Source of the DNA: Patescibacteria group bacterium
GTDB lineage: Bacteria > Patescibacteriota > Microgenomatia > UBA1400 > PJMF01
Reading direction: 5' to 3'
Assembly (NCBI GenBank): GCA_023382875.1
Contig: JAHDXH010000001.1
Span: 18,571 to 82,570 of the forward strand
Length of the DNA stretch: 64,000 nt
Shown here: in pieces, positions 1,888 through 50,359 of the stretch
How positions within the stretch are numbered: the stretch's first letter is position 1
Layout: every line of letters begins with the position of its first letter
Notes under the pieces: generated by a model
Seen by the model: only the letters and a program-made list of their open reading frames with translations
What the model was told of the DNA's origin: nothing
The model's database searches: none
Made by a program: the position numbers and the translations under genes

Positions 1888-1916
1888 CCCCTTCAATTTC
1901 GTACTCACGAAATTTT

Positions 1917-2678
1917 GTGATGTCGACTTGGAATTCAGTTTTTAATCTAGCTTTGCCCAAATTGTTGGCCAGTTATTTGGCCAAAGGTTTTTCACCTGTA
2001 AAATTTGACTCCCGCCTCCATGGTGGGAGTTTTTTCTCACACTCAATTAAGTCTCCCATTACTACATTACAAGTTTGTTTATCTGAATTAGAGCAAATTA
2101 CAAACTCTAGTCAAAAATTAGGTGGCGATCCAGTTTTACAAAAATATTTGTCTAGTGCTTATCTAGCAACTAAACAAATTAGTTCTTTGGTGGATGGTGC
2201 AACCTCTAGTGATCCTTATCAAAAAGTTCATGCGATTAACGTTGAAGAGTTTTTTAATCAATTGCAAACTTTGTTTGGTCATCATCACAAAAGATCGAAG
2301 ATAGTTTTATCGGTTAATTTAGTTTCCGGTAAAGAAACTATTAAAATGAATAAATATTTTTTCTTTGAATTGATGCAGTGTTTAATTAATAATGCTTTGG
2401 AATCATATAAAAAAAATGACAAACAAAAATTGGTTTTTGTAACTGTTGTTTGCAAAAATAAAAAATTAGAAATTCAAGTCCAAGACTTTGGTGAAGGGGC
2501 AACTTACTTAACTACTAGATTAATGTTGAATAAAGGTTTTACAACAAAAGATAAAGGTCATGGTTTTGGTTTGTGGTTTGTCAAAGATGTCTTAGAAACT
2601 GGTGCCAAAAGTAAGTTGAAAGTTTTATCTGAAAAAGGCTATGGCACTACAATTAGATTCAGTTTGCCGCTGTCTTAA
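1917..2678 (+). CDS. short cytoplasmic sensor histidine kinase (DHp + HATPase_c, no TM or sensor domain)
   Basis: H-box FSHSIKSPITTLQ. G-boxes DKGHGFGLWFVKDVLE and YGTTIRFSLP. 253 aa with no hydrophobic segments. Confidence 0.7.
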   Translation: MMSTWNSVFNLALPKLLASYLAKGFSPVKFDSRLHGGSFFSHSIKSPITTLQVCLSELEQITNSSQKLGGDPVLQKYLSSAYLATKQISSLVDGATSSDPYQKVHAINVEEFFNQLQTLFGHHHKRSKIVLSVNLVSGKETIKMNKYFFFELMQCLINNALESYKKNDKQKLVFVTVVCKNKKLEIQVQDFGEGATYLTTRLMLNKGFTTKDKGHGFGLWFVKDVLETGAKSKLKVLSEKGYGTTIRFSLPLS

Positions 2679-3336
2679 ACTGATAGCCAAACCCTCTGAT
2701 CGTTGTTAACCTTTCTTGATATTTTCCCAAGTGTTGACGAACCCTTTTTATATAAACATCTAGTGCGGTTCGTGTGGGTGTTTCTTCTTTGCAACCCCAT
2801 AGCCAATTTTCCAGTTGTGCTCTTGTTACTACTTGATCATGGTGTGCGACTAAACATTGTAAAACTTGAATCTCTTTTTTTCTTAATTTTTTGGCTTGTT
2901 GATCAATCTCTAACAAGCTTTCATTGGGATAAATTTTGATTGAGTCGATGACTAAGATTTGTCTTTGGTGATGTTTGGTTTTGTTAGTTAGAGATTCGAT
3001 GCGAAGCTTCAGTTCTTGCGAAGAAAATGGTTTGGCTAAGTAATCATCGGCGCCCTTGCTTAAACCCTCTACCCTGCTGATGGTTTCTGACTTTTGTGAA
3101 AGAATCAAAACTTTGGTTTTGAATGAGGTTTCTTTTAAATATTCGGCAATTTCTAAGCCATCACCATCTGGTAAAACTCGATCAATAATAGCGAGATCTG
3201 GCTGATGAGATTTTAAATAATCGTATGCAGAATTAATGCGTCTACAAATTTTAGTCGTCATGCCACAGTTGTCTAAAAGTTGGCCAATGGTTTGCGCCAA
3301 AGTTAAATCGTCTTCTATGATTAGAATTTCTGACAT
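2659..3336 (-). CDS. OmpR/PhoB-family response regulator. The start is likely ATG at 3336 (MSEILIIEDD). The track ORF extends to 3393.
   Basis: Receiver motifs (IIEDD, phospho-acceptor D in LAIIDRVLPDGDG, KPF). C-terminal winged helix TIRGFGYQF. The 3' end overlaps the convergent kinase gene by 20 bp. Confidence 0.8.
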   Translation of the reverse strand: MSEILIIEDDLTLAQTIGQLLDNCGMTTKICRRINSAYDYLKSHQPDLAIIDRVLPDGDGLEIAEYLKETSFKTKVLILSQKSETISRVEGLSKGADDYLAKPFSSQELKLRIESLTNKTKHHQRQILVIDSIKIYPNESLLEIDQQAKKLRKKEIQVLQCLVAHHDQVVTRAQLENWLWGCKEETPTRTALDVYIKRVRQHLGKYQERLTTIRGFGYQFKTAAN

Positions 3337-3449
3337 ATAAAATCGCTTCGATCCTAAGGGACCGTAAATTATTTTCAAGTGCCGGTGTGGCAATAATTGG
3401 CGATTTTAAAAAAACAATCTTAAATTAATCTTTCGTTTATAATGCAAGT

Positions 3450-4130
3450 ATGGCAAAAAATACATTTGAAACTCAAGAACATCATGTTAACGTGACGAAA
3501 AGCAAAGAGTACGTGTCTGAAATATTTGTAGAAGCACTCCGTAATTTTGCTGAGAGATTTGGCGAACCAAAAGTTGTTTATTATCCGAGTTCTAGCACAG
3601 ATGTTACTCCGGCTGTTGCTTTTCCTAATGCTCGAATTATTTTTCTTGACATTGATCAAGATGCGATAAATAAGCTTAAAGAAAGTGGAAAGGAAGCGGT
3701 TGAGGCTTCAGCAATAACATATGTTCCAGATGTAAAGGTAGATTTATTGATTCTATTCAACCCAGCAATTGACGCCAAGCTTCCAGCCAGGCACGTAAAA
3801 CTAGGTGGTTTTGTTTTTTGTAATAATTGGCATGCAAGTGCTAAGCAGTTGGCAGAAAATGATGAATTTGAATTAGTCGGAATAGCCATAAATGAAAAAA
3901 ATTCAAAAATAACTTTTGTCACCGGTGAGGAATCACTAGATATTTGGTCTAGTGGTATTGCAGATGTGAATGTTGATAGTGGGTTTATTTTTCAAAGAAT
4001 TAAAGAAAGTCCTCAGTCTAATGAGGAAGCAATTAAAGAATATGAAGATTTAGTTGCAGAACGGGCTAGACAAACTGATGAGCTAATGAGTCGCTACAAA
4101 GAGGTTTCAATCAGTATTGACGATATTTAA
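3450..4130 (+). CDS. hypothetical protein (226 aa, soluble)
   Basis: Clean ORF with a TATAAT-like -10 at 3436-3442. No motif I can name. Confidence 0.4.
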   Translation: MAKNTFETQEHHVNVTKSKEYVSEIFVEALRNFAERFGEPKVVYYPSSSTDVTPAVAFPNARIIFLDIDQDAINKLKESGKEAVEASAITYVPDVKVDLLILFNPAIDAKLPARHVKLGGFVFCNNWHASAKQLAENDEFELVGIAINEKNSKITFVTGEESLDIWSSGIADVNVDSGFIFQRIKESPQSNEEAIKEYEDLVAERARQTDELMSRYKEVSISIDDI

Positions 4131-4162: not shown

Positions 4163-5332
4163 ATGAGTGATAGTGATAAAGTAAATAATCCACGATTTTT
4201 GATAGTCCAAGTGATTGATAAGCGCGCCGATGAAGTTGCTGTTGCTAATGATTTGTCAGAGACAGAGCAGTTAATTGACACTTTTGGTGGCATAGTAATT
4301 GATAAATTTATTCAGCGACGCGAACACCCTGATCCAAATTTTTACATTGGCGCTGGAAAAGTTGATGAGCTAAAAGAGGTTTGCAAGGCAGAAAAAATAG
4401 ACGTAGTTGTCATTAATGGCCAAGTCAAAAGTAGTCAGCTGTTTCGTATCGAAAAGGAGTTATGGGCAGTCTCAACTAAGATTATGGTTTGGGATCGAAT
4501 TGACTTAATCCTCAATATTTTTGATCAACATGCTTCAACGACAGAATCTAAGCTGCAGATTAAGCTTGCCCGCGCTACGCACATGGGTCCTAGGATTTAT
4601 GGTTTAGGTAAAACTGAGCTCTCTCGTCAAGGTGGTGGTGTTGGTACGCGCGGCAAAGGTGAAACCAACATTGAGTTTGAGCGTCGCCAAATCAAAATTG
4701 ATCAGCAAAAAATCAAGCAAGAACTCAAAAAATTATTAAAGCAAAAACATTCCCGACTCAAAAAAAGAAATGAATTGGGCATTGGTCCCGTGGCATTGGT
4801 TGGTTATACCAGCGCCGGTAAAACGACTTTATTTAATGCTTTGACCGGCAAGGAAAAAGAAATGAATAAGGGTTTGTTTACAACTTTGGATACCGTGGTA
4901 GGAAAGTTAAAAACTCCTGTTTTTGATCAGCCGATTTTGGTTTCTGACACAATTGGTTTTATTAATAATTTACCTCCAGTGTTGATCGATTCATTTAAGT
5001 CTACTTTGCTTGAATCACTAGAAGCTAAGCTACTTTTGCATGTGGTGGATGCTAACGATCCATTTATTTTGGAAAAAATTGCAGTTGTTGAGGATATTCT
5101 AAGTGGTTTGGGAGCGAGACAGCCGATGATTTTAGTTTTAAATAAAGTTGATTTACTCGATGAGGCAAAGCAAGATTCTTTAAAAGAGCAAGTGAACGAA
5201 TTTTTTGAAAAAAATAATGAAGAAGCTGATAAAAGTAATTTGAGATCAATTCAATTTGTCTCGGCAAAATCTGGATTTAATCTTGATGGACTTAAGGAAG
5301 AAATCGTAGGATTTTTTGAGGAGAAGAGATAA
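4163..5332 (+). CDS. hflX: GTPase HflX
   Basis: HflX N-domain followed by G-domain with G1 GYTSAGKTTLFNALTG, G3 DTIGF and G4 NKVD. 389 aa. Confidence 0.85.
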   Translation: MSDSDKVNNPRFLIVQVIDKRADEVAVANDLSETEQLIDTFGGIVIDKFIQRREHPDPNFYIGAGKVDELKEVCKAEKIDVVVINGQVKSSQLFRIEKELWAVSTKIMVWDRIDLILNIFDQHASTTESKLQIKLARATHMGPRIYGLGKTELSRQGGGVGTRGKGETNIEFERRQIKIDQQKIKQELKKLLKQKHSRLKKRNELGIGPVALVGYTSAGKTTLFNALTGKEKEMNKGLFTTLDTVVGKLKTPVFDQPILVSDTIGFINNLPPVLIDSFKSTLLESLEAKLLLHVVDANDPFILEKIAVVEDILSGLGARQPMILVLNKVDLLDEAKQDSLKEQVNEFFEKNNEEADKSNLRSIQFVSAKSGFNLDGLKEEIVGFFEEKR

Positions 5333-12602: not shown

Positions 12603-15600
12603 TTATTGAATTTTTACCTGACTATTGATGAAGTGGAAGTGGTCCAAAACAGTTTTTGTTTCTGGCAACACTCCTTTGACAATGAAATCGTTGCCAAATA
12701 ACTTTGGTAACAAATCATTTTCTTTGGAGAATAAACTCTCTTTGAACATCATTTTTGCTTCAACTGAGCCAATCCACAATGCCTTATAGGGATTATTTTC
12801 TACCACTACATTACTAAGGTTTTCCTTAGTCAAAATGTTTTTGAATTGCTCTGGAACCTGTTGTGGTTTTTGATCCAAAGTTTCAGCATTGATTTGGTAG
12901 AAAAGTTTACCCTTTTTATCAGGTCCAACGGTGGCTGATAAATCAGCTTCTTGGTTGATTAAAGCTAAAGTTGAACTATTCACAAAATGGAAATTATCAA
13001 CCATTGAGTTGGTGGGTTTGAGAATTCCTACGACTTTGACTTTTGGCAAGCCAAAAAAATTATTCAACTCGTCCCCCACTTTGTTAATTAATTTTTCTTC
13101 AATCATCATTTGCGCTTCATTGGCACCGATGATAATTTCGTTGTCATTTAAGTTTCCTTGACCTTGGTTGAATGGCAAGCTGATTAACTCTTCTTTTTCG
13201 ACCGCCAAAAATAGTTTTGGTGCTTTATCTAAGTAAGTTATTTTGCCTTGTGAATAAGCAAAAATTTGATTAGCCGCTTTGGTAATTTTAGGATTAACAA
13301 CAGCACTACTCATTTCACTACTATTCATTTGACTACTAAATTTGGCAAATTCCACAAACATTAAACTGAAAACAACAATCATGATGATTGGTGCGACCAT
13401 AGATATATAGTTTTTGCGGTTTGGCTTGTATAAGCGCAAGAGTAATGAGTTGGCCACTACTGAGACAGAACTTAATGCCATGGCTAATCCAGCTAATTCT
13501 GGTTTAAGCACTAATCCAAAGGCAACAAAGAGTCTGGCGGCAATTGGAATACCCATGACGTTATACAAAAGGGCAAAGAATAAGTTTTGTTTAATTTTGC
13601 CAATCGTTTCTTTTGACAAGTTGATGGCGTGAACAACATCATTAAGATCATTTTTAATAATGACAATGCCACCTGTCTCCATGGCTACGTCGGTGCCTGA
13701 GCCCATAGCGATACCTAGCTCGGCTTGAGCTAATGCTGGCGCGTCGTTAACGCCATCACCTACCATGGCTACTATATGTCCTTGCGATTGAAGTTTTTTT
13801 ACTTCATTGACTTTATCTTTTGGTAAGACTTCTGCTAATACATTGGTGATGCCGACTTGTTTGGCGATCGCTTCTGCTGTTCTTTTGTTATCACCGGTAA
13901 TCATATAAATGGCTAAGCCCATTTTTTGAAGTTTTTCGATGGCTGCTTTTGAGTTTGGTTTGACGGTATCGGCAACAGCGATTAAACCTTCAATTTGTTT
14001 TTTGTTGGCCAAAATCATGACGGTTTTGCCTTGATTTTCCAGTTCATGAATTTGAGCATCAATTTCTTTGGTTGAATGTTTGAGGTATTCAGCAATCAAT
14101 TTTTTATTACCAAAATAATAAGTTTGATTATCGATTTTGGCAGTGACACCATGGCCAACAATTGCTTCAAAATCAGAAACTTTTTTGAGATCTAATTTTA
14201 AGCTTTGAGTTTTTTGATAAATGGCTTCAGCCAATGGATGCTCAGATTGTTTTTCTAAACTCCCAACAATAGTTAAGAGTTGTTTTTCATCTATTTTTTC
14301 TAAACTGATGACATCGGTAACACTGGGTTTACCAACAGTAATGGTGCCAGTTTTATCAAAAATGACAGCCGTAATTTTGCAAGCTTGTTCAAGTGGTTCA
14401 CCACCTTTGACTAGAATGCCATGTTCAGCACCTTTGCCCGTGCCAACCATAATGGCCGTAGGCGTAGCTAATCCCAATGCACATGGACAGGCAATAACGA
14501 TGACAGCTGTAAAAGCCATCAATGCTGTTGATAAGGTTGCACCTAAAACAAAGAACCAAACCACAAAAGTAAGAATGGCGATGATAATAACAGCCGGAAC
14601 AAACCAAGCAGAAATTCGATCGGCCAAATCTTGAATTGGTGCTTTGGAGCCTTGGGCTTCTTCAACTAATTTAATGATTTGTGCCAAGGTAGTTTCACTA
14701 CCAACTCTCGTGGCGGTGAATTCAAAACTACCAGTTTTGTTGATGGTGCCACCAGCAACTTTGTCGCCGGCCTGTTTGGCTACCGGTAAACTTTCGCCGG
14801 TCAACATTGATTCATCGACTGACGATGAGCCTTTGGTAATTTTGCCATCGACAGGAATTTTTTCTCCCGGTCTAACCAAAATTACATCGCCAACTTTAAC
14901 TTCATCGATCGGAATATCTGTAGTTTTATTGCCTCTCACAACTCTAGCTGTTTTTGCTTGAAGTCCCATTAGTTTTTTAATGGCAGTTGAAGTTTTACCT
15001 TTGGCTTTAGCTTCCAAAAGTTTTCCCAAAATCACGAACGTGATTAGGAAAGCAGCGGTTTCAAAATATAGTTCGGGAATTTTTGCGCCTTCAATACCAA
15101 TAACCGATTCAGTGATAAAAGCATAACGAAGGAAATTGAATAAGCTATAAAAATAGGCCACCGAAGTGCCAATAGCAATCAAACTATCCATGTTAAAAGT
15201 TTTCATCCGTAAGGCAGACCACATGCCTTGGTAGAAACTTTTACCAACAATGAATTGAATTGGGGTAGTAAGGATTAAAGAAATAATGCCTACATAGGGC
15301 AAAAGCAGTTTAGCGCCAAAAAAGTTGGGCACAAAATCAAAAATCATGAAGTAAGCCATGGGCAAACTCAAAATCAAACTAAAGATAAATTTTTGCAGTT
15401 GGTTTTTTTCTTCGTGATGGTGATGGTGAGCTGAGTCAGCTTCAATTTGTTGAACGTTGTCACCTAGTTCCTGTGCATGGTAACCAGCTTTTTTGACAGC
15501 CTCAATAATCGTTTCTGAGTTGGTGTCATTTTCTGCCACAACCTGCGCTTTTTCATTAGCATAATTAACATGCGCTTCTTTAACTCCAGGAACTTTTTTA

Positions 15601-15674
15601 ATTGAAAGTTCAACTAGACTGGCACATGAAGCACAGTGCATACCGTGAATTGCATAGCGTTTGGTTGCTGGCAT
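12603..15674 (-). CDS. copA: copper-translocating P1B-type ATPase (CopA-like) with an extra C-terminal TM helix and a roughly 270-aa MacB/FtsX-like extracytoplasmic domain
   Basis: N-terminal [15 protein letters not shown]. His-rich AHHHHHEE. Ion-binding CPC in ACPCALG. Phosphorylation [13 protein letters not shown]. After the last canonical TM (..LLLRLYKP) the ORF continues for about 275 aa with one more TM and a soluble domain carrying two repeats ([20 protein letters not shown] and [20 protein letters not shown]). Confidence 0.85.
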
Positions 15675-15699
15675 AGTTTCCTTTTATATTTTTTGTTTT

Positions 15700-17121
15700 T
15701 TAATTTGTGACTTCGATAATGCCGGTGGCCATACCCATCCAGCAGCTAAAACGAAACTTGCCGGTTTTGGTTGGGGTAAAAGTTTTAACAGAAGTTTGAC
15801 CAGGACTCAGTCTAATTTCCCCGTCAAAGAAGTCTTTGGCAATCACGGCATTAGTACAGCCGGAAGCACCATTGTCGGTAATTCTCCACTCCACCGGTTG
15901 GTTAACTTTGACTTTAATGTAGTCTGGTTCGTAACCACCGGCGGTAGCGGACATTTCGACGATTTGTTTTTCACCTGCCTGTGTTGGACTGGTGAAAGTT
16001 GAATCTTGTTTGCTATTAATGAAATAGGCTGAGAAGTTTGGCCAACCTAAAACATTAAAAGCAGAATTGATATTAAAAAGTGAGAACAAAATGATAAGTA
16101 AACCAGCGACTTGTGAGAAAAATCTAGTGACGTGGGGTCGTTTATTAAACATTAAGCTAGACAAGCCGATGAATAACAAAATTGGTGCAGTACCTAAGGC
16201 AAAAGCTAACATGATCAGGGCGCCGCGGATGGGGTCGCCAGACAGTAGTGCGATTCCTTGAGTGGTGATGGTAAAACCACATGGTAGTAGAACGGTGCCG
16301 GCGCCCATCAAAGCAGGCATTAACCGACCAGAAAAGTTTCTTTGATCAGCAAGGTTGCGAGTCAAAACTTTTGGTAGTTTTGGTTGGAATTTATTGGCCC
16401 ACTCTACTCCCAACATTTGCAAAGATAAGACCACCATCAAAATAGAAACAAAAATTGTGATTAGAGCAGAAAAGGAAATAGAAATTTGGAAAACATTTCC
16501 TAATGATCCCAAAAGAAATCCTACTAAAGTGTAAGAAACTAGTCTGCCTAAATTAAATAAAATTTGTGGTTGAAGTTTTTCTGTCAGACTATTGGAAGTT
16601 TGATAGAGTTCAGCCCATTGTTTTGACATTGATAAAACAATTCCGCCAACTAAAGCTGAGCAGGTGGAAAAACCAGCAATTACACCAAAGGCGATAAATG
16701 CAAACAGTGAAGATTCGGCATTTACACTAAGTGCAATTGCTCCTGAGCTAGAAAATTTCAAAAAAGCACCAAAAATAATTGCCACAATAGTGAGGGCTGG
16801 CAACAACTGCAGCATTCGACTAAAGTTCCAAATGATTTCTCCATCACTTGTGACTTGGAAAAATGGTTCAGCTTTTTGTGTTCTTTCATCTTTAGAATCA
16901 TAAAAAGTGTAACCATCTTTTTTGAATAATTTGTTTAGCTTATTTGGGTTTGGAGCATCTCCGGTAAATTCAATTAAGACTGATTTATCTTTTTGTGAAA
17001 CTTCAACTGATTTAATATTTTCTTTTTCTAGAAGTTTATTTTCAATCAAAAGTTCGCATGATGCGCAGTGCATGCCTTCAACAAAGTACTGTTTTTCTGA
17101 GCAGAGGTTTTTTTCTGACAT
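15700..17121 (-). CDS. HMA-domain membrane permease (DsbD_2/TauE-like multi-TM core) with a C-terminal cupredoxin-like domain. Probable copper binding or transport.
   Basis: N-terminal GMHCASCE metal-binding motif. About 8 TM segments. C-terminal domain KVNQPVEWRITDNGASGCTNAVIAKD...FRFSCWMGM resembles cupredoxin_1-type domains found with heavy-metal transporters. Confidence 0.6.
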   Translation of the reverse strand: MSEKNLCSEKQYFVEGMHCASCELLIENKLLEKENIKSVEVSQKDKSVLIEFTGDAPNPNKLNKLFKKDGYTFYDSKDERTQKAEPFFQVTSDGEIIWNFSRMLQLLPALTIVAIIFGAFLKFSSSGAIALSVNAESSLFAFIAFGVIAGFSTCSALVGGIVLSMSKQWAELYQTSNSLTEKLQPQILFNLGRLVSYTLVGFLLGSLGNVFQISISFSALITIFVSILMVVLSLQMLGVEWANKFQPKLPKVLTRNLADQRNFSGRLMPALMGAGTVLLPCGFTITTQGIALLSGDPIRGALIMLAFALGTAPILLFIGLSSLMFNKRPHVTRFFSQVAGLLIILFSLFNINSAFNVLGWPNFSAYFINSKQDSTFTSPTQAGEKQIVEMSATAGGYEPDYIKVKVNQPVEWRITDNGASGCTNAVIAKDFFDGEIRLSPGQTSVKTFTPTKTGKFRFSCWMGMATGIIEVTN

Positions 17122-17126
17122 GGGAA

Positions 17127-17609
17127 TTAATTGCTGTATTTCTCAGGATTGTCTTTGAATCTGTGCAGGCATCCTTCAGCGCAAAAGTAATAATTAATAT
17201 TTTTATAATTAGTTGAATAACTGGCAATTTTGGGTGAAAGTCTCATGCGGCAAACTGGATCTTGAACGATGGGTAAAAGTTTTTCAAAGTCATCACACAT
17301 GGCTTTGGCGGTTTTTTTGTCAGAAATATCTTTAATCAAAACTTCTCTGATTAAATCAGAGGCTAATAAATAATTGGGATGAGTGATGTGATAGAAAACT
17401 TCTTTGCCTTCTTTTTTGGTACAGACAATTTTGGCTGCACGAAGTATAGAAAGGTGCTGACTCAAATTGGCTTGGGGCAAATTTAACATCTCAATCATTT
17501 GATTGACGTTAACTGTTTGGTCGCGAAGTAAATTAAGAATTTCCAGCCTTTTGGGATTGGCTAGGGCTTTAAGAACGTTGGCGTGAATTTCAAAAATCTG
17601 AGAATACAT
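17127..17609 (-). CDS. ArsR/SmtB-family metal-responsive repressor with a C-terminal TRASH/YHS-type Cys-rich metal-binding domain
   Basis: wHTH LKALANPKRLEILNLLRDQTVNVNQMIEMLNLPQANLSQHLSILRAAKIV. C-terminal PVCRMRL...YFCAEGCLHRFKDNPEKY. Confidence 0.75.
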   Translation of the reverse strand: MYSQIFEIHANVLKALANPKRLEILNLLRDQTVNVNQMIEMLNLPQANLSQHLSILRAAKIVCTKKEGKEVFYHITHPNYLLASDLIREVLIKDISDKKTAKAMCDDFEKLLPIVQDPVCRMRLSPKIASYSTNYKNINYYFCAEGCLHRFKDNPEKYSN

Positions 17610-19359: not shown

Positions 19360-20541
19360 TTAATGATGATGCCCGCCGTGATGGTGGGCATCTTTTTTTG
19401 ACTCATCTTCAGGATCAAGTTTAGTTTTAGTGAAAACATAGGCGGCTAAGGCAGTTGCGAGTGGTGCAGCAAAAATCAAACCAATACTGCCAACCAGCAT
19501 TTTGACAATTTCCTCTGCCACCAATTCAAATTCTAAAATATCAATGAAGCCTTTGTTTGAGCCAAAGAAAAGTAAAAGCAGCGGCAATGAGGCTCCGGCA
19601 TAAACTAAAACTAAAGTATTAACCATTGATGAAATATGATCTTGGCCGACCTTCATACCTTTTTGGAAAAGTTTTAAAAAGCCAATGGCAGGATTGGTTC
19701 TTTTGATTTGTTCGACAACGGAAGCTTGACCAATGGTCACGTCATCTAAAATACCTAGTGTGCCAATGATAATTCCGGCCAATAGTAAGCCCTTAATATC
19801 AATCGTGCCATGTCTTTCGATTTGTAGGAATCCTGCTTCCTCGCTGGCAAAGCCGGTCAAATAGGTCTGTTTGATAAAAATGAGAGCTAAGGTGCCAGTA
19901 AAAGCCAAAGAAATTAGGGTGGTAATAACACCGACATGAGTCTTTTTGTTAATACCGTGAGAAACGTAAAAAGTGGCGGGGATAATGACGGCTGCACCGA
20001 TGAGTGTAGAAATAACCGGATTGTAACCATTAATAATCATAGGAATAATCTGGTAAAAAATTACCAAAAATGAAATACAAAGTCCCACTAAAGACATCAT
20101 GCCCCAAATTTTTCCGATGGCTAAAACAGCGATAATAAAAAGAAGTGTTAATCTAATTAGTCCATGTCTCTTGATTTTCCCTTGAATAATAAACTCTGGT
20201 TGTTCACTTCCATCGAAGTAGCTTAAACGAATTTTATCGTTGGTTTTGTAGTTTTCATATTGAGCGGTAATATCCACACCTGCGCTCGAATTTTTAACCA
20301 AGAACACTTGGTCTTTGTATTCTGAGTTGGTTAATTTCACTTCTAATTGCTGATATGGAACCAGTTCGCCATTAAACGATTCTTTGCCTGTTTCTTTGAC
20401 CTTAATGACCACGCCTTCTGCACTCACAGGTTCTGCTAAAGGCTCTGTGGTTTGTGCAAATGCCTGACTTTTGAAGCCAATTAATATGGCTACACAAGTG
20501 AAAAAAATAAATAGGTTTTTTTTGAAACTTTGAAAAGTCAT
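19360..20541 (-). CDS. YibE/F-family membrane protein with signal peptide, extracytoplasmic N-domain and a C-terminal His-rich tail
   Basis: Signal peptide ending AFAQ. Roughly 130-aa soluble domain, then multiple TM helices. C-terminus DAHHHGGHHH. Confidence 0.55.
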   Translation of the reverse strand: MTFQSFKKNLFIFFTCVAILIGFKSQAFAQTTEPLAEPVSAEGVVIKVKETGKESFNGELVPYQQLEVKLTNSEYKDQVFLVKNSSAGVDITAQYENYKTNDKIRLSYFDGSEQPEFIIQGKIKRHGLIRLTLLFIIAVLAIGKIWGMMSLVGLCISFLVIFYQIIPMIINGYNPVISTLIGAAVIIPATFYVSHGINKKTHVGVITTLISLAFTGTLALIFIKQTYLTGFASEEAGFLQIERHGTIDIKGLLLAGIIIGTLGILDDVTIGQASVVEQIKRTNPAIGFLKLFQKGMKVGQDHISSMVNTLVLVYAGASLPLLLLFFGSNKGFIDILEFELVAEEIVKMLVGSIGLIFAAPLATALAAYVFTKTKLDPEDESKKDAHHHGGHHH

Positions 20542-37478: not shown

Positions 37479-37566
37479 TGGCGGAGGGGGCGGGATTCGA
37501 ACCCGCGGCAGCTTTCACCGCGGCGGTTTAGTAAACCGCTGCACTAGGCCACTATGCGACCCCTCC
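37479..37566 (-). tRNA. class II (long variable arm) tRNA, Ser-type, with anticodon loop TT-ACT-AA (apparent anticodon ACU)
   Basis: Minus-strand read GGAGGGG-TC-GCA-TAGTGGCCTAG-TGC-A-GCGGT-TTACTAA-ACCGC-[16-nt variable arm]-GCGGGTTCGAATCCCGC-CCCCTCC-G-CCA. Perfect acceptor and T stems, CCA encoded. One nucleotide away from a canonical tRNA-Ser(GCU) loop. Confidence 0.7.
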
Positions 37567-39875: not shown

Positions 39876-40442
39876 TTGCTTATGAAAAAAAAGATCTTAG
39901 TTGTCTTAGGAACAACCAGGCAAAATCGAGCTGGCGAAGGTGTAGCCAACTGGGTAATGAAAAACTTACCAAAAACCAAAAACACTGAATACGAATTAGT
40001 TGACTTGCGCGATTGGCCACTGCCTTTCTTTGATGAAGCGATGCCTCCACTCGCATCTCAAGGAAACTATGAAAACGAATTAGGTAAAAAATGGTTAGAA
40101 AAAGCCAAATCAGCTGACGGATTTTTACTTGTAACTGCCGAATATAACCATAGTGTGCCAGCGGTTTTGAAAAACGCTTTGGACTACTGGTATTCTGGTT
40201 GGATGCAGCACAAACCAGTGGCTTTTGTTAGTTACGGCGCTACCTCTGGTGGAATTAGGGCAGTCGAGCACTTACGCCAAATTGGCTTAGAATTACGCTT
40301 GTTGCCTATTCACAACGAAGTAAACATTCCTTTCATTTGGGAAGCTTTTAATGAAGACGGTACAATTAAAAGAGAAAGTCAGGTTGGCCAGCTTCACTCG
40401 GTCATTGCTGAATTAGACGCTTGGTTCGACTTAGTTAAATAA
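39876..40442 (+). CDS. NADPH-dependent FMN reductase (flavodoxin-like fold)
   Basis: KILVVLGTTRQNRAGEGVANWV at the N-terminus plus the flavodoxin-like fold. 188 aa. Confidence 0.75.
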   Translation: MLMKKKILVVLGTTRQNRAGEGVANWVMKNLPKTKNTEYELVDLRDWPLPFFDEAMPPLASQGNYENELGKKWLEKAKSADGFLLVTAEYNHSVPAVLKNALDYWYSGWMQHKPVAFVSYGATSGGIRAVEHLRQIGLELRLLPIHNEVNIPFIWEAFNEDGTIKRESQVGQLHSVIAELDAWFDLVK

Positions 40443-40461: not shown

Positions 40462-41391
40462 GTGCAAAAAATAATATTGCTGGCACTAGTTTTAATAATT
40501 GGTGCCACAATTTTTTTGACCATGCAAAAACAAACACCCCATACCCAGACAGAATCCAAACTTACTTCTCATCTGGAGATGGGGGTGGTTGAGTTGCTAG
40601 TTAATGATTTGAGTAGACAGCGACATTTTTATCAAGATTTGGTTGGGTTGGCTGTTTTAGATGAAGCTAGTGGGAGTGCCGTTTTGGGATATGAAGATCG
40701 GCCGATACTTAAATTAGTTGAGGACAAAAACAAACCCTTTCCTGCTACTCATAGCGCTGGTCTTTATCACTCAGCGACTGTTTTTGAGACGCGCTCAGCT
40801 TTGGCTCAAGCCTTACTAAGGATTTTGACTGATTCTCCACAACTTTATACGGGTAGTGCTGATCATTTGGTGAGTGAAGCCTTTTATTTTAATGATCCTG
40901 AAGGCAATGGTGTGGAATTATATTTTGACAAAGACCCAGCCACTTGGATTTGGAACAACGGCCAGATCGAAATGGATTCTGTCTATATTGATGTCAAAGA
41001 ATATATTTTGACGCATGGTCAAACTTCAGCGACTCAAGCTAAAAAAATGGGTCATGTTCATTTGAAAGTTGGTTCTATCGCTGAAGCTAAAAGATTTTAT
41101 GTGGAGGTGCTTGGTTTTAGAGTGACAGCAGAAATGCCGACAGCGCTTTTTATTTCCGATGGTCAATACCACCATCATTTGGGGATGAATGTTTGGGAAA
41201 GTAATGGTGCTGGCCAAAGACAGTCGACATTGGGTTTGAGTAGTTTTGTCATGATGCTTGATAAAAAAAGTGATTTGGAAAAATTAGAAGCAAGATTAAA
41301 TAAATTTGGCGTAGATTTCAAAAAAAATAGTGATCAAATAATAGTCTTTGATCCGTGGCTAAATCAATTAATTTTTGAGGCAGCTGAGTAA
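40462..41391 (+). CDS. VOC-family (glyoxalase/extradiol dioxygenase fold) two-domain protein with an N-terminal TM
   Basis: Two tandem VOC modules (LEMGVVELLVNDLSRQRHFYQDLVGL and MGHVHLKVGSIAEAKRFYVEVLGFRV). Confidence 0.7.
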   Translation: MQKIILLALVLIIGATIFLTMQKQTPHTQTESKLTSHLEMGVVELLVNDLSRQRHFYQDLVGLAVLDEASGSAVLGYEDRPILKLVEDKNKPFPATHSAGLYHSATVFETRSALAQALLRILTDSPQLYTGSADHLVSEAFYFNDPEGNGVELYFDKDPATWIWNNGQIEMDSVYIDVKEYILTHGQTSATQAKKMGHVHLKVGSIAEAKRFYVEVLGFRVTAEMPTALFISDGQYHHHLGMNVWESNGAGQRQSTLGLSSFVMMLDKKSDLEKLEARLNKFGVDFKKNSDQIIVFDPWLNQLIFEAAE

Positions 41392-45003: not shown

Positions 45004-46113
45004 ATGAAAATTGCTCAAATTGCTCCGATCGTTGAAAGAGTTCCGCCAAAAAAATATGGTGGTACGGAAAGAGTTGTCCACGTTCTGACTGAGGAGTTGG
45101 TAAAACTTGGACATGAGGTAACATTATTTGCGACTGCCGACTCAATAACATCGGCCAAACTAGTAGGAACCGTTGATAAAGGTTTGCGAGAAAAAAACAT
45201 TACCGATAGTTATACAAAAAATGGTTATACACTTTCCCATGTAGGTAAAGCCTATGATCGTTATAAAGAATTCGACATTATTCACGACCATGTCGGGGCT
45301 CTAAGTTTGCCAACAGCGAATATTTGTCCTAAGCCAGTTATTTCTACACTCCATGGTGCATTTTTTGATCATAATAAAAAACTTTATGAGAGTTTAAACA
45401 ATCCATATTTTGTAACAATTTCTGATGCTCAGGGTGAGCCTGTCCCCGATTTACACAAAGTAGCAACTGTTTACAACGGTTTAAACATGAGTCATTACCC
45501 TTTCGAAGATGAGCCAGAGGATTATCTTTTATATGTTGGCAGAATCGCGCCCATTAAAGGTACTCATCTTGCCGTGCAAATTGCCCATGAATTAGGTTTG
45601 CCGCTGATTATTGCTGCTAAGTTGGAAGAAGAAAACAAGGAGTACTTTGACAAAGAAGTTAAGCCATATCTTTCCTCTACTATTAGATGGGTGGGTGAAG
45701 TTGATGAAGAAGAAAGAAACAGATTAATGAGTAAGGCTAAGTGTTTTTTACACCCAGCGACGTGGGAAGAGCCTTTTGGTTTAACACTCATTGAAGCAAT
45801 GGCTTGTGGCTGTCCAGTAGTTGCTTTTAGCAAAGGTTCGATTCCCGAAATTATTGAAGATAAAAAAACCGGTTTTGTGGTCAAAGATCTTAAAGAAATG
45901 GCAACTGCTATTTTATCGATTGAACAAATTGATCGTTGGTATTGCCGTGAATATGCTTTGACTAAGTTTAATGCTCAAAAAATGGCTGAACAATACGAAA
46001 GTCTATATTACTTAATCTTAGGTCAGACAGTTAAGGACTTTGAGCCTGACTATGATTATGTGCAATCAATTAGACCAAGGCTTAGTGCTTATAGAGAATT
46101 AATGTTTACTTAA
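45004..46113 (+). CDS. family 4 glycosyltransferase (GT-B)
   Basis: C-terminal GT4 signature EPFGLTLIEAMACGCPVVAF...GFVV. 369 aa. Confidence 0.8.
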   Translation: MKIAQIAPIVERVPPKKYGGTERVVHVLTEELVKLGHEVTLFATADSITSAKLVGTVDKGLREKNITDSYTKNGYTLSHVGKAYDRYKEFDIIHDHVGALSLPTANICPKPVISTLHGAFFDHNKKLYESLNNPYFVTISDAQGEPVPDLHKVATVYNGLNMSHYPFEDEPEDYLLYVGRIAPIKGTHLAVQIAHELGLPLIIAAKLEEENKEYFDKEVKPYLSSTIRWVGEVDEEERNRLMSKAKCFLHPATWEEPFGLTLIEAMACGCPVVAFSKGSIPEIIEDKKTGFVVKDLKEMATAILSIEQIDRWYCREYALTKFNAQKMAEQYESLYYLILGQTVKDFEPDYDYVQSIRPRLSAYRELMFT

Positions 46114-46192
46114 TTCTTACAAGAATTTGTCGAAAAATTATTGACTCAATTTATAAACTAAGTTGAACATTAAAAAATAAAGAAAGGAAATC

Positions 46193-46447
46193 ATGAATAT
46201 ACTTTTATGGTTAATTCTTGGAGCAGTGTCGGGTTGGATTGCTTCAATGATTATGAAAACTGATCAACAGCAAGGAATATTCCTCGATGTCGTTTTAGGC
46301 ATCGTAGGGGCAGTAATCGGCGGAACTTTAATGAGCTTCTTTGGACAACCAGGAGCAACAGGTTTCAACTTTTACAGTCTCTTTGTCTCAGTTTTAGGCG
46401 CCGTGGCCTTGCTTTCACTGGGAAAATTTTTCTCAAGATCTCACTAA
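46193..46447 (+). CDS. GlsB/YeaQ/YmgE-family stress membrane protein
   Basis: WLILGAVSGWIASMIM...DVVLGIVGAVIGG is the characteristic transglycosylase-associated protein motif. 84 aa. Confidence 0.75.
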   Translation: MNILLWLILGAVSGWIASMIMKTDQQQGIFLDVVLGIVGAVIGGTLMSFFGQPGATGFNFYSLFVSVLGAVALLSLGKFFSRSH

Positions 46448-46470
46448 TTATTAGTTGCTAGTTGAGATGG

Positions 46471-46508
46471 TTGGGCCGGGGTGAATCGCCCCGGCCCAAT
46501 TTGATTTG
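46471..46508 (+). terminator. intrinsic terminator GGGCCGGGG-tgaatc-GCCCCGGCCC followed by a T-rich run
   Basis: 10-bp GC stem at 46471-46499, then AATTTGATTTG. Confidence 0.65.
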
Positions 46509-46542
46509 CTAAAATCAAAACAGACTTTATGATATTAAAGAA

Positions 46543-47109
46543 ATGAAAGATCAATCTTTAAGGGAAATTATTAGCGATGTTTCTCACGACCTCCAGTCAA
46601 AAATAATGTCGATTAAAGCTCAAGTTTATTTGGCTAGACATGGCAAAGGAGACTTGGAAAAAGTGGAAACTGAATTGCAACAATTAAGCCGTTTACTTGA
46701 TGACTTAACTTCATTGCTAGTTATTAATGGCAGCCATAATAATATTCAAAAAAAGGAAATAAAGTTGGAAAATTTTTTTGGTTTTCTTTCACAAAATTTT
46801 TCTTTGACACTAAAAATAGATCCAAATTTAATTCAAAATTATTCCATGTCGACCAATGAAGATTTGTTGAATTGGTTTTTTAAAATGTTTGAAAAATATC
46901 TAGTTTTAAAAAAATACTCGCAAAAAGTTAAGATAGTTGTTTCTCAAAAGAAAAACAAAGTAGAGATTAAATATTATTTTGATAAATCAACAAAACAAGA
47001 AAATAAGCCAAGGCTAATAAATTTTTATTTATTTGCTTTGAAAACTGCAGCGACGGTTTTAAACATTTCTTTTTCTATGGAAGAAGACGTTTATTCTTTG
47101 ATTGTGTAA
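46543..47109 (+). CDS. histidine-kinase-like protein with a DHp (HisKA) domain but degenerate or absent ATP-binding G-boxes
   Basis: H-box VSHDLQSKIMSIKAQ, but no recognisable N, G1 or G2 boxes downstream. 188 aa. 3' end overlaps the convergent regulator by 19 bp. Confidence 0.5.
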   Translation: MKDQSLREIISDVSHDLQSKIMSIKAQVYLARHGKGDLEKVETELQQLSRLLDDLTSLLVINGSHNNIQKKEIKLENFFGFLSQNFSLTLKIDPNLIQNYSMSTNEDLLNWFFKMFEKYLVLKKYSQKVKIVVSQKKNKVEIKYYFDKSTKQENKPRLINFYLFALKTAATVLNISFSMEEDVYSLIV

Positions 47110-47762
47110 CCAAAGCCGCGTACTGATTTGATCAATTTGTCTTTGTGGTCACGGTCAATTTTTTTTCTTAAATAGCCCATATAAACATCTACGACTCTAC
47201 TCTCAACCTCAAACGAGTATGCCCAAATTTTATTAAGAATCATATCTCTAGAAATTACTTTTCTTGAATTTTGCATTAGGTACTGCAAAAGCTCGAATTC
47301 TCTTGGGGTGAGATTGATAGTTTTTCCTGCTCTTTTGACTTCAATTTTTTCACTATCAAGTTCGAGGTCTCCAATTTTCAAAATACTATTGGAAATATTT
47401 TTTTGTCTTAAACGAGCTTTAATTCTGACTAATAATTCTTCTGTTTCAAATGGTTTGGTAACATAATCATCTGCCCCAAGATCAAAGCCTTGAATTTTGG
47501 CATTCAAAGAATTTTTGGCCGTTAACATAATGACTGGCAAACTGGCAAACTGTTTTTTGATTTGAGCGCAAACACTTTCACCATTAATATCGGGAAGTTC
47601 TAAATCTAGTAAAACTAAGTCGGGAGTAATTTCGTTGAGAATCTGCAAACCGCTAGTGCCTTTTGGTGTGCTTTTGACAATATAACCTTGATCAGTCAAT
47701 ATATTTTCTAAAAATGACCGAGTAGAATTATCGTCTTCTATCACCAATACGATTGGATGCAT
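47091..47762 (-). CDS. OmpR/PhoB-family response regulator
   Basis: Receiver (VLVIEDD, D in LVLLDLELPDING, TAK, KPF) plus winged helix (VDVYMGYLRKKID...SVRGFGYTI). Confidence 0.85.
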   Translation of the reverse strand: MHPIVLVIEDDNSTRSFLENILTDQGYIVKSTPKGTSGLQILNEITPDLVLLDLELPDINGESVCAQIKKQFASLPVIMLTAKNSLNAKIQGFDLGADDYVTKPFETEELLVRIKARLRQKNISNSILKIGDLELDSEKIEVKRAGKTINLTPREFELLQYLMQNSRKVISRDMILNKIWAYSFEVESRVVDVYMGYLRKKIDRDHKDKLIKSVRGFGYTIKE

Positions 47763-47821
47763 AGCCAGATTATACCCTATGATTAAAAATCATATGTACT
47801 ATAATCGCACTCAACTTCATT

Positions 47822-50359
47822 ATGAGACCACTGTTTTTACAGCGCATCATAGATCGGCTGGTTACAGCAATACCGGTTACTATTTTAATTTTAGGTCTCT
47901 CTCTCACATTAATTTCCGCTTATTACATTGATAGATCTAGTCAAGAAAAAGAGTTAAAAGATTTCACTAATTCCACAAAAATGGTGGAAAAGAGAATTAA
48001 GGATGCAGCTTCGTTTTATAGTACTTTGCTTTTTTCAACTAGATCGTATCTTTATAGTGATGAGTATGTAACTCAAGAATCATTTGGAAAATTTGCCAAA
48101 AATCTTCATTCTGGAAAAGCTTACTTAGGTATTGATGGTGTTGGTTTTGTTTCGACAGTTCCCTATTCTCAAAAAAGCAATTTTATTAATGAACTTAGGA
48201 CCAATGGTGCTGTAGTTGATTTGGATAACGACATCAATGAAGAAGAGCCGAGTCAAATTGTCGCCTATCTAGAACCTCAGGACTTAAGAAATCAAGCCAT
48301 GATTGGTTTGGATTTTTCTCACCAAGAAACCTTTAGACAAGCTATGAATAAATCTAAAGCAGACGGGGTAGTTGCTAGTAGTGGCCGAGTGTTAATGCAA
48401 CAACCGATGGGAGATCAGTCTGATGCCGGCTTTGTTTCTTTCCTGCCAGTCTATAGTTCATCTAGTTTGCCAAATGTACAGGAAGATAGATTAAAAGAAA
48501 CAAAAGGTTTTGTTTTCATTATTTTCAACGTTAGGGATTTTTTTGGTCAAATATTTTCTGAAAATAGTACTGCGCCAGTTAATTTTAGTATTTTTGAGTC
48601 AACTGGTGAAAATGAACAACGACTTTTGTATACATCAGAAGCTGATGATCAATATAAACCTAGGTTAAAACTTTCAGAAAAAATTGATATTTTAGGCAAG
48701 TCGTGGACAATTAATTACACCAACAAAGCATCGAGTGATATTACTTCGGTTCGTCACTCTGTGCCAATGTTGGTAATCATTGGTTTATTGTTAACAGCAA
48801 TTATCTATGTCATTACTGAATCGCAAATTAAAGCTCGCTTCACTGCAGAAAAAACTCAGCGAGAACTTTTTGAAGCAAAATCATCAGTTCAAGCTAGCGA
48901 AGAAAAATTAAGACTTTTGATTCAAGAATCAAAAGAATATGCCATTGTGATGCTAAGCAAAACCGGCCGAATTATTAGTTGGAATTCTGGAGCTGAGCAG
49001 CTATTTGGATTCACAGAGGTTGAAGTATTGAACAAAGACTATGCCGCACTTTTTTCTGATAAAGAAAGAAAAAAAAGAATACCAAAAAAAGAATTATCAG
49101 CAGCTTTACAAAAAAATATACATAAATTTGAAAGACACTTTGCTACCAAAAATGGAACTGTTTTTTGGTTAAGCGGGGTTCTTAATACTGTTTATGATAA
49201 TGACCATTTGTTAAAAGGTTACGCACTAATTGCTAGAGATGTCTCAGATAGAAAAAAGTGGGAGGAAGCAGTGGTTAAAAACCAACAACAAACACAGGCC
49301 ATTTTAGACTCATTGAGGTCTGGAGTGGTAGTGATTAACCGCTTGGGACAAGTGATCGCCTTCAATCAAGTTTGGGAAAAAATGAGAGAACATAACTTGG
49401 CAAATGTGAAAAAGAAATTAGCCTTGGGTGAAAATTTGCTGGAAGCATTGCAAAAATCAGAAAGTGTTAATAACGAAGATTCACAGTTAGCCTTGAAAGG
49501 TATTCAGAAAGTTATTAATAAAACAGCCAAGCACTTTTGGCATGAGTATCAAATTTTTGATGCTAACAATGATGAGAGATGGTACCACTTGCAAGTTACG
49601 CCTTTAAAACAAGAAGAAGACCGGGTGGTGATTGCCTATACCAACATTACCGAAAGAAAAAAGCTAGAAAAACAAAAAGATGACTTTTTAAGAATTGCCA
49701 GCCACGAGCTCAAGACCCCAATTACTTCTACTAAGGCCTACGCTCAAGTTTTGATTAAAATGCTGAATGATAAGAAAAGCGAGAATAACACAGTTAGGTT
49801 ATTAACCAAAATGGATCAGCAGCTGAATAAAGTGACAAAGTTAATTAATGATTTGCTTGATGTTTCTAAAATTGAAGCCGGTCTGTTAAAGCTTAACAAC
49901 CAATATTTTGAATTTGATATTCTCGTTAATGAAATTGTTGAGGCTGTTCAGCTGACGAATGGTGACCACCAGATTGTGGTTAAAGGTAAAACCAAAAAAA
50001 GACTTTATTCTGATCCAGAAAGGTTGGGTCAAGTTTTAACCAACTTGTTGATTAATGCAATTAAGTTTTCTACCAAAAAAAGACGAATTTATTTGATCTG
50101 TGAAGTTAAGAGTGGAGATATTTTAGTTGAAGTCAAAGATTCTGGAGTTGGTATTAGTGAAGACGATCAGAAAAACCTATTCCAAAGATTTTTCAGAGTC
50201 CAAGCTCCTGAATTTCAAGGTCAATCGGGCTTAGGTTTGGGACTTTATATTTCTGCGGAAATTATTAAGCGGCTTGGAGGTGAAATTGGTGTAAAAAGTG
50301 AATTAGGTAAGGGTTCTACTTTCTACTTTTCATTGCCAATCGAAAATGAAAAAAAATAA
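47822..50359 (+). CDS. membrane sensor histidine kinase with a periplasmic sensor domain, two PAS domains, HisKA and HATPase_c
   Basis: TM at residues about 13-35 and about 314-334 flanking a roughly 270-aa extracytoplasmic domain. Two PAS domains. H-box RIASHELKTPITS. N-box NLLINAIKFS. G-boxes DSGVGIS and GLGLGL. Confidence 0.85.
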   Translation: MRPLFLQRIIDRLVTAIPVTILILGLSLTLISAYYIDRSSQEKELKDFTNSTKMVEKRIKDAASFYSTLLFSTRSYLYSDEYVTQESFGKFAKNLHSGKAYLGIDGVGFVSTVPYSQKSNFINELRTNGAVVDLDNDINEEEPSQIVAYLEPQDLRNQAMIGLDFSHQETFRQAMNKSKADGVVASSGRVLMQQPMGDQSDAGFVSFLPVYSSSSLPNVQEDRLKETKGFVFIIFNVRDFFGQIFSENSTAPVNFSIFESTGENEQRLLYTSEADDQYKPRLKLSEKIDILGKSWTINYTNKASSDITSVRHSVPMLVIIGLLLTAIIYVITESQIKARFTAEKTQRELFEAKSSVQASEEKLRLLIQESKEYAIVMLSKTGRIISWNSGAEQLFGFTEVEVLNKDYAALFSDKERKKRIPKKELSAALQKNIHKFERHFATKNGTVFWLSGVLNTVYDNDHLLKGYALIARDVSDRKKWEEAVVKNQQQTQAILDSLRSGVVVINRLGQVIAFNQVWEKMREHNLANVKKKLALGENLLEALQKSESVNNEDSQLALKGIQKVINKTAKHFWHEYQIFDANNDERWYHLQVTPLKQEEDRVVIAYTNITERKKLEKQKDDFLRIASHELKTPITSTKAYAQVLIKMLNDKKSENNTVRLLTKMDQQLNKVTKLINDLLDVSKIEAGLLKLNNQYFEFDILVNEIVEAVQLTNGDHQIVVKGKTKKRLYSDPERLGQVLTNLLINAIKFSTKKRRIYLICEVKSGDILVEVKDSGVGISEDDQKNLFQRFFRVQAPEFQGQSGLGLGLYISAEIIKRLGGEIGVKSELGKGSTFYFSLPIENEKK

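Follow-up and report, generated by a model that had tools for sequence, protein, structure and literature searches.

The stretch of DNA analyzed here (the window) comprises 64,000 nucleotides of contig JAHDXH010000001.1 from a Patescibacteria group bacterium (assembly GCA_023382875.1), a member of the candidate phyla radiation (CPR)/Patescibacteria, in which signalling is, to our knowledge, almost unstudied. At two loci of the window, a plus-strand gene converges on, and overlaps at its 3' end with, a minus-strand gene for an OmpR-type response regulator. In a first-pass annotation, each of these pairs was read as a histidine kinase with its regulator, and the overlap was taken as a possible sign of antisense or transcriptional-interference coupling. 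Locus 1 holds a sensor-less soluble kinase with the H, N, G1, and G2 boxes of its class and, in all probability, the regulator belonging to it. The most interesting findings lie beside the original claim, namely a pair of covarying hairpins within the first 40 codons of the kinase gene and, at locus 2, a candidate four-gene phosphorelay.

The geometry claimed for the first pair is confirmed by the coordinates of the open reading frames (ORFs). Kinase 1 is a 253-residue protein encoded at 1917–2678 on the plus strand (GTG/ATG start), and the minus-strand ORF of regulator 1 ends at 2659, leaving 20 bp shared by the two 3' ends (2659–2678). The description of the protein as a soluble kinase also holds: a hydrophobic-segment check detected no transmembrane segment, and Pfam returned HATPase_c above its gathering score (E = 7e-11). 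From about residue 41 to the C-terminus, kinase 1 aligns with the AtoS, PhoR, and CreC models of NCBIfam, and in a sequence search of the PDB its catalytic and ATP-binding (CA) domain matches the structures of FixL and KinB. It is thus read as a transmitter-only histidine kinase, composed of a putative dimerization and histidine phosphotransfer (DHp) domain and a CA domain, with a mere 40 residues ahead of the predicted phospho-acceptor His42 (codon 2040–2042), which leaves no sensor domain. The H box, F-[FL]-x-H42-[ST]-[IV]-x-[ST]-P-[IL]-T-T-L, is kept in all nine sequences of the family (SHSIKSPIT in the window), and its H42-S-I-K-S-P resembles H-E-L-R-T-P. The N box NNAxE and the G1 box DFGxG are likewise present in 9/9 sequences, and the G2 box reads GHGFGL in seven of the nine and RGFGL in the other two. 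None of the nine sequences has a break in this frame, and the residues preceding His42 (KFDSRLHGGSFF) are conserved as protein, from which we conclude that the frame is translated.

Locus 1 adds to the ordinary HisKA/OmpR class a new member of very narrow distribution, in a convergent layout that is known but uncommon. Eight relatives with 52–96% amino acid identity were found among 5.8 billion proteins, and an exact look-up returned no record. A scan of the GTDB representative genomes with the kinase 1 alignment gave no relative. The neighboring gene hflX (4163–5332) encodes a protein that is 73–75% identical to those of metagenome-assembled genomes (MAGs) of Patescibacteria, Woesebacteria, and Pacebacteria, and the GTDB genomes closest by this measure have no kinase 1, regulator 1, or PMT-family gene within 5 kb of hflX. 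A metagenome scan with query P0013 produced no match; the sole return of a metagenome scan with the kinase 1 alignment was a 557-residue membrane kinase, which was set aside as unrelated.

Regulator 1 (2659–3336, minus strand) is an OmpR/PhoB-type protein with a Response_reg (1e-23) and a Trans_reg_C (2e-17) domain in Pfam. Its ORF spans 2659–3393, and the start ATG at 3336, which is conserved in all relatives, gives a protein of 225 residues. The claim that both minus-strand genes are of the OmpR type is well founded, as both consist of Response_reg and Trans_reg_C with both domains above the gathering cut-off; the full-length alignments of the two regulators to the PhoB and MtrA models stay below the equivalog cut-offs.

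The perfect consensus promoter reported ahead of kinase 1 is found at 1859–1887 on the plus strand, where TTGACA-17 nt-TATAAT matches the consensus at 12/12 positions. Three sites in the 64 kb match perfectly, this one among them, against an expectation of 0.84 at up to one mismatch, and the TTGACA hexamer and GATATAATCCC are kept in 8/8 loci. The predicted leader of the kinase 1 mRNA is 10–27 nt long and has no Shine-Dalgarno sequence. The palindrome that had been noted before the kinase start, AATTTCGT-ACTC-ACGAAATT, is indeed present at 1895–1914 (plus strand), at the predicted 5' end of the mRNA and starting 8 nt past the -10 hexamer, and it is unique in the window. Its conservation is not borne out: it occurs in the four closest loci (identity of 82% or more), whereas the other four (L011, L012, L001, and L004) have a deletion in its place, which rules it out as a conserved operator.

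Regulator 1 has a promoter-like site of its own at 3351–3378 on the minus strand (TTGAAA-16-TAGGAT, 9/12 match), whose CTTGAAAATAATTA...TTAGGAT is conserved across the eight loci. Kinase 1 and regulator 1 are accordingly predicted to be transcribed as independent units, both from conserved promoters of a sigma-70-like type. Upstream of the regulator promoter lies a direct repeat, AAGATT-N5-AAGATT, with an 11-bp period (3416–3432, minus strand) and AAG...AAG columns that are invariant in the eight loci. We regard it as a candidate OmpR-type binding site that could serve autoregulation; the motif is uninformative elsewhere in the window, with no convincing second copy there or at the kinase 1 promoter. 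Adjoining this repeat, just upstream of the regulator 1 -35 element, is a conserved inverted repeat, TGCC-ACACC-GGCA.

Two hairpins, each followed by a run of T residues, lie inside the 5' coding region of kinase 1. The first (h1, 1965–1992, plus strand) pairs 1965–1970 with 1979–1984, ends in a T5 run, and covers codons 17–26. The second (h2, 2007–2035, plus strand) pairs 2007–2016 with 2022–2031, ends in a T6 run four bases before the His42 codon, and covers codons 31–40. Both were classed as terminator-like by the terminator scan, h2 being the second strongest such site in the first 60 kb. The predicted energies are -5.4 to -11.4 kcal/mol for h1 in seven of eight loci and -12.5 to -18.2 kcal/mol for h2 in all eight, and both T runs are invariant. 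Over the eight loci, 95% of the pair cells hold standard pairs, compared with 28–56% when the 3' partners are slid by 1–3 columns. Six pairs in all show double changes, and in h1 both sides have changed in 5/6 pairs; none of 500 shuffles reached the observed covariation score. Compensation in h1 is non-synonymous; in one instance, an Ala-to-Val change (GCC to GTC) is matched by an Ala-to-Thr change (GCC to ACC). The 152-nt 5' RNA of kinase 1 folds with z = -5.3 relative to shuffles.

Codon usage tells the same story. Synonymous divergence, measured as how often two sequences with the same amino acid at a site differ in its codon, falls to 0.11–0.20 in codons 16–40, against a gene mean of 0.43 and values of 0.5–0.6 just downstream. 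This drop is three- to four-fold, and in regulator 1 the measure is never below 0.29. The covariation and the suppressed synonymous divergence establish that the structure of h1 and h2 is under selection. Rfam gave no match above threshold in the hairpin region, with sub-threshold matches to generic 'hairpins plus terminator' families at 1840–2100; at the gathering threshold, it returned two tRNAs and nothing else.

Both hairpins have the form of intrinsic terminators, that is, a GC-rich stem-loop followed by a U-run on the transcribed strand, and h2 shares a CCCGCC-N5-GGTGGG core with the strongest terminator of the window (19368–19392), which is located where one gene ends and falls within the coding sequence of its neighbor. 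We therefore read h1 and h2 as putative intrinsic terminators housed in coding sequence. In the mechanism that we propose, they would act as an intragenic attenuator or insulator, halting untranslated RNA, including read-through from the upstream serS–PMT genes. A ribosome that loads at the near-5' start and closely trails the polymerase would allow them to be bypassed, and they would limit the number of polymerases that run antisense into the regulator 1 gene. Since kinase 1 has no input domain, its activity would probably be set largely by the amount made. Two further readings of the region were considered and set aside. A small RNA that reaches from the promoter to h1/h2 and carries a conserved seed is unlikely, as the synonymous divergence of codons 1–15 is ordinary (0.38–0.44). 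An internal start downstream of the hairpins finds no conserved start codon, and KFDSRLHGGSFF before His42 is conserved as protein.

The hairpins might alternatively have no regulatory role for kinase 1, being either terminators of serS–PMT that have been pushed into the next gene or structures that stabilize the mRNA or pause translation. The 72-bp gap between PMT and kinase 1 is filled by the promoter, and the serS–PMT–kinase synteny is invariant, as such displaced terminators would have it. Other strong terminator-like hairpins also lie inside the coding sequence of a neighboring convergent gene (19368–19392, plus strand; 58621–58599, minus strand), which hints that this genome often places its terminators within coding sequence. 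However, h1 and h2 are located downstream of the consensus promoter of kinase 1 and hence must act on its transcripts too, for which reason the two readings overlap and are not mutually exclusive. We consider a purely non-regulatory role rather doubtful. A further terminator-like hairpin with a T7 run is seen at 40481–40507 (plus strand), about 20 nt into the ORF 40462–41391 and right past the co-directional ORF 39876–40442; it may be another 5'-coding terminator, or the ORF start may be mis-assigned.

The gene order serS – PMT-family glycosyltransferase – kinase 1 (plus) – regulator 1 (minus) is kept in 8/8 relative loci. The gene past regulator 1 varies among them (hflX, a Bax1-I gene, or a 226-residue ORF), and it is this variation that marks the kinase 1–regulator 1 pair as a conserved unit. 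In the window, the 226-residue ORF (3450–4130, plus strand) stands between regulator 1 and hflX and has no Pfam or NCBIfam match; because it is present in L014 yet absent at that position in L005 and L013, the site appears to be a variable insertion point. The convergent layout had been proposed to be specific to the lineage, and the relatives agree, since it is retained by all relatives found (eight and five loci, respectively) of kinase 1 and of the plus-strand gene of locus 2, which encodes a 188-residue protein. Unlinked or co-directional versions were looked for among the eight kinase 1 loci and the 188-residue-protein loci examined, and none was found. The two pairs were also correctly described as independent: identity between the regulators is 28%, and BLASTP detects no similarity between the genes facing them on the plus strand. 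The pairs are thus not duplicates of each other.

The motifs of kinase 1 and its conserved adjacency to regulator 1 suggest that the kinase would autophosphorylate on His42 and then pass the phosphoryl group to the adjacent regulator. One might instead suppose that the two genes are neighbors by descent, each partnered with an unlinked protein elsewhere in the genome. They are not co-transcribed by our prediction, the H box of the kinase is atypical with Ser/Thr at H+1, and the genome in view amounts to 64 kb, all of which would accord with such an arrangement. Against this, the adjacency persists in 8/8 loci despite the changing genes beyond the regulator, and the sole other two-component system (TCS) genes of the window form a module of their own. 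Moreover, TCS genes less than 200 bp apart have been found to be partners with a false-positive rate below 2.5% (PMC3018481). We thus hold it to be quite improbable that kinase 1 and regulator 1 work with other partners.

Whether the overlap itself has a meaning is a separate question. Overlapping 3' ends are no peculiarity of signalling genes, since 7/16 (44%) of the convergent junctions in the window overlap, by 4, 4, 4, 19, 20, 42, and 54 bp, and most of the others have a gap of at most 21 bp; a simple non-overlapping ORF set puts the coding density of the window at about 92%. Nor is the length of the overlap constant. Seven relatives have the 20 bp of pair 1, and the most distant, L004, has 47 bp; pair 2 overlaps by 19 bp in L007, L009, and L010 and shows a 43-bp gap in L034. 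Synonymous sites within the overlap vary freely: all four synonymous codons are used across relatives for a proline of kinase 1 inside it, and the synonymous divergence near the 3' end of the gene (codons 240–249) is 0.55 compared with the gene mean of 0.43. No terminator-like site was found by the scan on either strand within about 2100–4000 or 46000–48200, which makes read-through into the antisense partner plausible; the same expectation applies equally to the other overlapping convergent pairs of the window. An inverted repeat across both stop codons (2659–2665/2677–2683) was also considered, and being AU-rich, with a stem of 7 bp and an 11-nt loop, and lost in L011, it does not qualify as a terminator.

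The idea that the overlap signals antisense coupling is therefore unsupported by any sequence-level test, and the frequency of overlaps across the genome weakens it. The 20-bp overlap seems best explained as a by-product of genome compaction and not as a dedicated coupling device. A selected regulatory device, in which polymerase collision or antisense RNA would bring about reciprocal repression of kinase and regulator, could draw on the retention of the layout in all relatives, on the lack of terminator-like sites in the two intervals scanned, and on the much greater strength of the kinase 1 promoter (12/12) relative to that of regulator 1 (9/12). It could also point to the general rarity of adjacent TCS genes encoded in trans, that is, on opposite strands, which form a recognized minority with a cis:trans ratio above 15:1 at distances below 200 bp (Williams and Whitworth 2010, PMC3018481). 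However, besides the common overlap of unrelated convergent genes, the unconserved overlap length with its 43-bp gap in L034, and the lack of excess nucleotide constraint, the two conserved terminator-like hairpins at the 5' end of kinase 1 would sharply cut transcription into the regulator gene. The plus-strand gene of pair 2 is not the kinase, and a shared order among close relatives may be plain inheritance. In our estimate, a selected device of this kind is unlikely, and we would caution against seeing regulatory devices in the 3' overlaps that convergent genes show in compact genomes.

The second convergent pair consists of the 188-residue protein (46543–47109, plus strand) and the 223-residue OmpR-type regulator 2 (47091–47762, minus strand; Response_reg 3e-30, Trans_reg_C 2e-27), which overlap by 19 bp at 47091–47109. 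While this geometry stands as first described, the plus-strand gene cannot be upheld as a kinase, being without a Pfam match or ATP-binding motifs. It is preceded by a promoter-like site, TTGCTA-16-TATGAT (46506–46533, plus strand), that ends 9 nt before the ATG, leaving a very short leader with no Shine-Dalgarno sequence. A conserved GC-rich hairpin at 46471–46499 (plus strand; TTGGGCCGGGG...CCCCGGCCCAA), with compensatory-looking changes in L007 and L010, lies past the Transgly_assoc gene and just upstream of this site. The 188-residue protein family is tiny, with three cluster representatives in a profile search of 1.84 billion proteins. The gene has four close relatives, and the three loci examined all have the 19-bp overlap and an OmpR-type regulator.

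The AlphaFold2 (AF2) model of the 188-residue protein (pLDDT 76) has a helical hairpin (residues 6–32 and 38–63) followed by an alpha/beta domain. Foldseek matches it to the DHp and CA cores of histidine kinases (E ~5e-8) and to ChpT (4fmt, E = 2.4e-6), and DivL (4q20) and RetS (6dk8) are also among the structural matches. All seven members of the family have His15, within the motif S-H-[DE]-x-Q. The ATP-binding elements are gone: none of the seven members has DxGxG or GxGxG, Met or Ile takes the place of the N-box Asn, the final 90 residues of the window protein are free of Gly, and the model shows a 9-residue loop where the ATP lid is expected. As a kinase fold without N, G1, and G2 boxes or lid, the protein cannot be an ATP-dependent autokinase. 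Its predicted structure has the makings of a phosphotransferase of the Spo0B/ChpT kind, a DHp-like hairpin bearing a His and a degenerate Bergerat domain. This architecture is shared by ChpT, a protein that does not autophosphorylate (PMC3433190). The likeness is one of fold and architecture, as there is no Pfam or NCBIfam match to the Spo0B (SPOB_a/SPOB_ab) or ChpT families. On the strength of the model, we propose the 188-residue protein as a candidate Spo0B/ChpT-like histidine phosphotransferase and its family as a new version of the kinase-fold phosphotransferase theme.

Two further signalling genes complete locus 2. Regulator 2 is separated by a 59-bp divergent control region (47763–47821; mean column identity of 86% over four loci) from a gene for an 845-residue sensor kinase (47822–50359, plus strand) with the Pfam architecture CHASE-PAS-PAS-HisKA-HATPase_c and no receiver domain. 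On the plus strand of the control region, TATAAT at 47800–47805 would serve this kinase. On the minus strand, TATAAT at 47774–47769 sits 6 nt before the ATG of regulator 2, on which account the regulator 2 mRNA is probably leaderless. The kinase is followed by a 124-residue single-domain receiver (50346–50720, plus strand; Response_reg 2e-21), whose best NCBIfam match is a DVU0259/DivK-like family and whose ORF shares 14 bp with the end of the kinase ORF, an arrangement suggestive of coupled translation of the two. The four genes (188-residue pseudo-kinase, plus; regulator 2, minus; CHASE-PAS kinase, plus; receiver, plus) have the same order and orientation in L007 and in L034, a Patescibacteria MAG (P0014) with 27% identity in which the pseudo-kinase and regulator genes are 43 bp apart. 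The probable kinase of regulator 2 is the divergently oriented 845-residue CHASE-PAS protein and not the 188-residue protein.

By analogy with the Spo0 relay (KinA–Spo0F–Spo0B–Spo0A), locus 2 may encode a phosphorelay. The 845-residue kinase would pass its phosphate to the 124-residue receiver, the receiver to the 188-residue pseudo-kinase acting as a dimeric phosphotransferase, and the latter to the OmpR-type regulator 2. We rate this scheme as an open possibility whose chances come close to, and stop short of, even. A competing view makes the 188-residue protein a pseudo-kinase modulator akin to DivL or RetS, which would bind the phosphorylated receiver or the 845-residue kinase, or else a phosphatase of regulator 2, with direct transfer from kinase to regulator. 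The presence of DivL and RetS among the structural matches and the DivK-like match of the receiver fit this view, as does the position of the 845-residue kinase and regulator 2 on either side of a common conserved control region, as in ordinary pairs. By contrast, the His at the canonical DHp position, which is replaced in DivL, is invariant in the family down to 27% identity. The phosphatase motif of HisKA proteins, H-E/D-x-x-T/N, is not kept in the 188-residue protein family, where H+4 is S, S, A, or N. In addition, the locus has every item of the Spo0 parts list: besides an output regulator and a kinase-like protein that carries a His, it encodes a stand-alone receiver whose translation appears tied to that of a non-hybrid kinase. 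A modulator or phosphatase role seems to us the less likely of the two and on balance improbable, and the phosphorelay remains the preferred reading.

Taken as a whole, the account that we favor, in which locus 1 is a minimal TCS with an overlap due to compaction and a hairpin attenuator or insulator, and locus 2 a phosphorelay, appears to us somewhat probable. A more specific version, joining a ribosome-overridden coding-sequence attenuator that would shield regulator 1 from collision to a Spo0-like four-step phosphorelay with a new pseudo-kinase family, asks for more and is in our judgment unlikely. Several points weigh against the favored account. In kinase 1, H+1 is Ser/Thr in place of the usual Glu/Asp, Pfam HisKA does not match the DHp, the DHp segment alone retrieves no kinase in a PDB sequence search, and the AF2 model (pLDDT 40) is too poor for a fold search; the autokinase competence of the protein is therefore not assured. 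As to the hairpins, no antiterminator or alternative antiterminator pairing was found, and two efficient terminators 50–120 nt into the ORF would also kill the mRNA of kinase 1 itself. At locus 2, the sequence matches of the 188-residue protein family to a CpxA-type DHp are marginal (E ~0.02), an hhalign comparison of its family with that of kinase 1 is, like BLASTP, not significant (probability 0.4%), and a two-component scheme, with direct transfer from the 845-residue kinase to regulator 2 and the receiver as a sink, fits the gene content equally well. Promoters, 3' ends, read-through, and attenuation are all deduced from the DNA, and each conservation argument rests on five to eight fairly close sequences.

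If the favored account is true, reduced genomes retain a transmitter-only kinase whose probable input is its own expression level, and a compact four-gene phosphorelay has been built on a new, tiny family of kinase-fold phosphotransferases. The hairpins indicate that selection on RNA structure can override amino acid choice within a kinase gene, and they would offer a concrete case of termination signals placed in coding sequence where intergenic space is scarce.

Elsewhere in the window, 12603–17609 (minus strand) holds a copper/heavy-metal cluster, with a P-type ATPase that has an HMA domain (1022 residues) and a DsbD_2/cupredoxin/HMA protein (472 residues). ARAGORN assigns the unusual anticodon ACT, perhaps through a misreading of the anticodon loop, to a tRNA-Ser at 37479–37566 (minus strand), where Rfam also finds a tRNA.

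Several known systems invite comparison. With EnvZ/OmpR, PhoR/PhoB, and the FixL-type CA domain, locus 1 shares a regulator composed of a receiver and a winged-helix Trans_reg_C domain, the H, N, G1, and G2 boxes of the kinase, and the adjacency of the genes. In contrast to EnvZ/OmpR and PhoR/PhoB, kinase 1 has neither a sensor nor a transmembrane segment and carries Ser/Thr at H+1, and the two genes are convergent with separate predicted promoters instead of forming an operon. In lying on opposite strands less than 200 bp apart, the genes resemble the trans-encoded adjacent TCS genes surveyed earlier (PMC3018481); whereas that survey gives their frequency, the convergent form described here is conserved in a clade and has overlapping 3' ends. 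The trp and pheA attenuators likewise combine a strong promoter with GC-rich hairpins and U-runs within about 150 nt that overlap a translated frame. Unlike in these attenuators, the hairpins of locus 1 occupy codons 17–40 of the kinase itself and not a leader peptide, and they come with neither a detected antiterminator pairing nor an Rfam match.

At locus 2, the closest parallels are Spo0B of Bacillus and ChpT of the Caulobacter CckA–ChpT–CtrA pathway, which share with the 188-residue protein an N-terminal His-bearing hairpin and a Bergerat-like domain without ATP-binding elements (PMC3433190). The differences are that sequence homology is undetectable, that the four genes are clustered, that the output regulator is of the OmpR type, that the host belongs to the CPR, and that phosphotransfer is proposed here from the genes. 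As in KinA–Spo0F–Spo0B–Spo0A, the locus combines a kinase, a stand-alone receiver, a His-bearing kinase-fold protein, and an output regulator. DivL and RetS, finally, resemble the 188-residue protein in having a kinase-core fold without normal autokinase function. They are large, keep the CA motifs to varying degrees, and act by protein–protein modulation, whereas the 188-residue protein is minimal and has kept its His.

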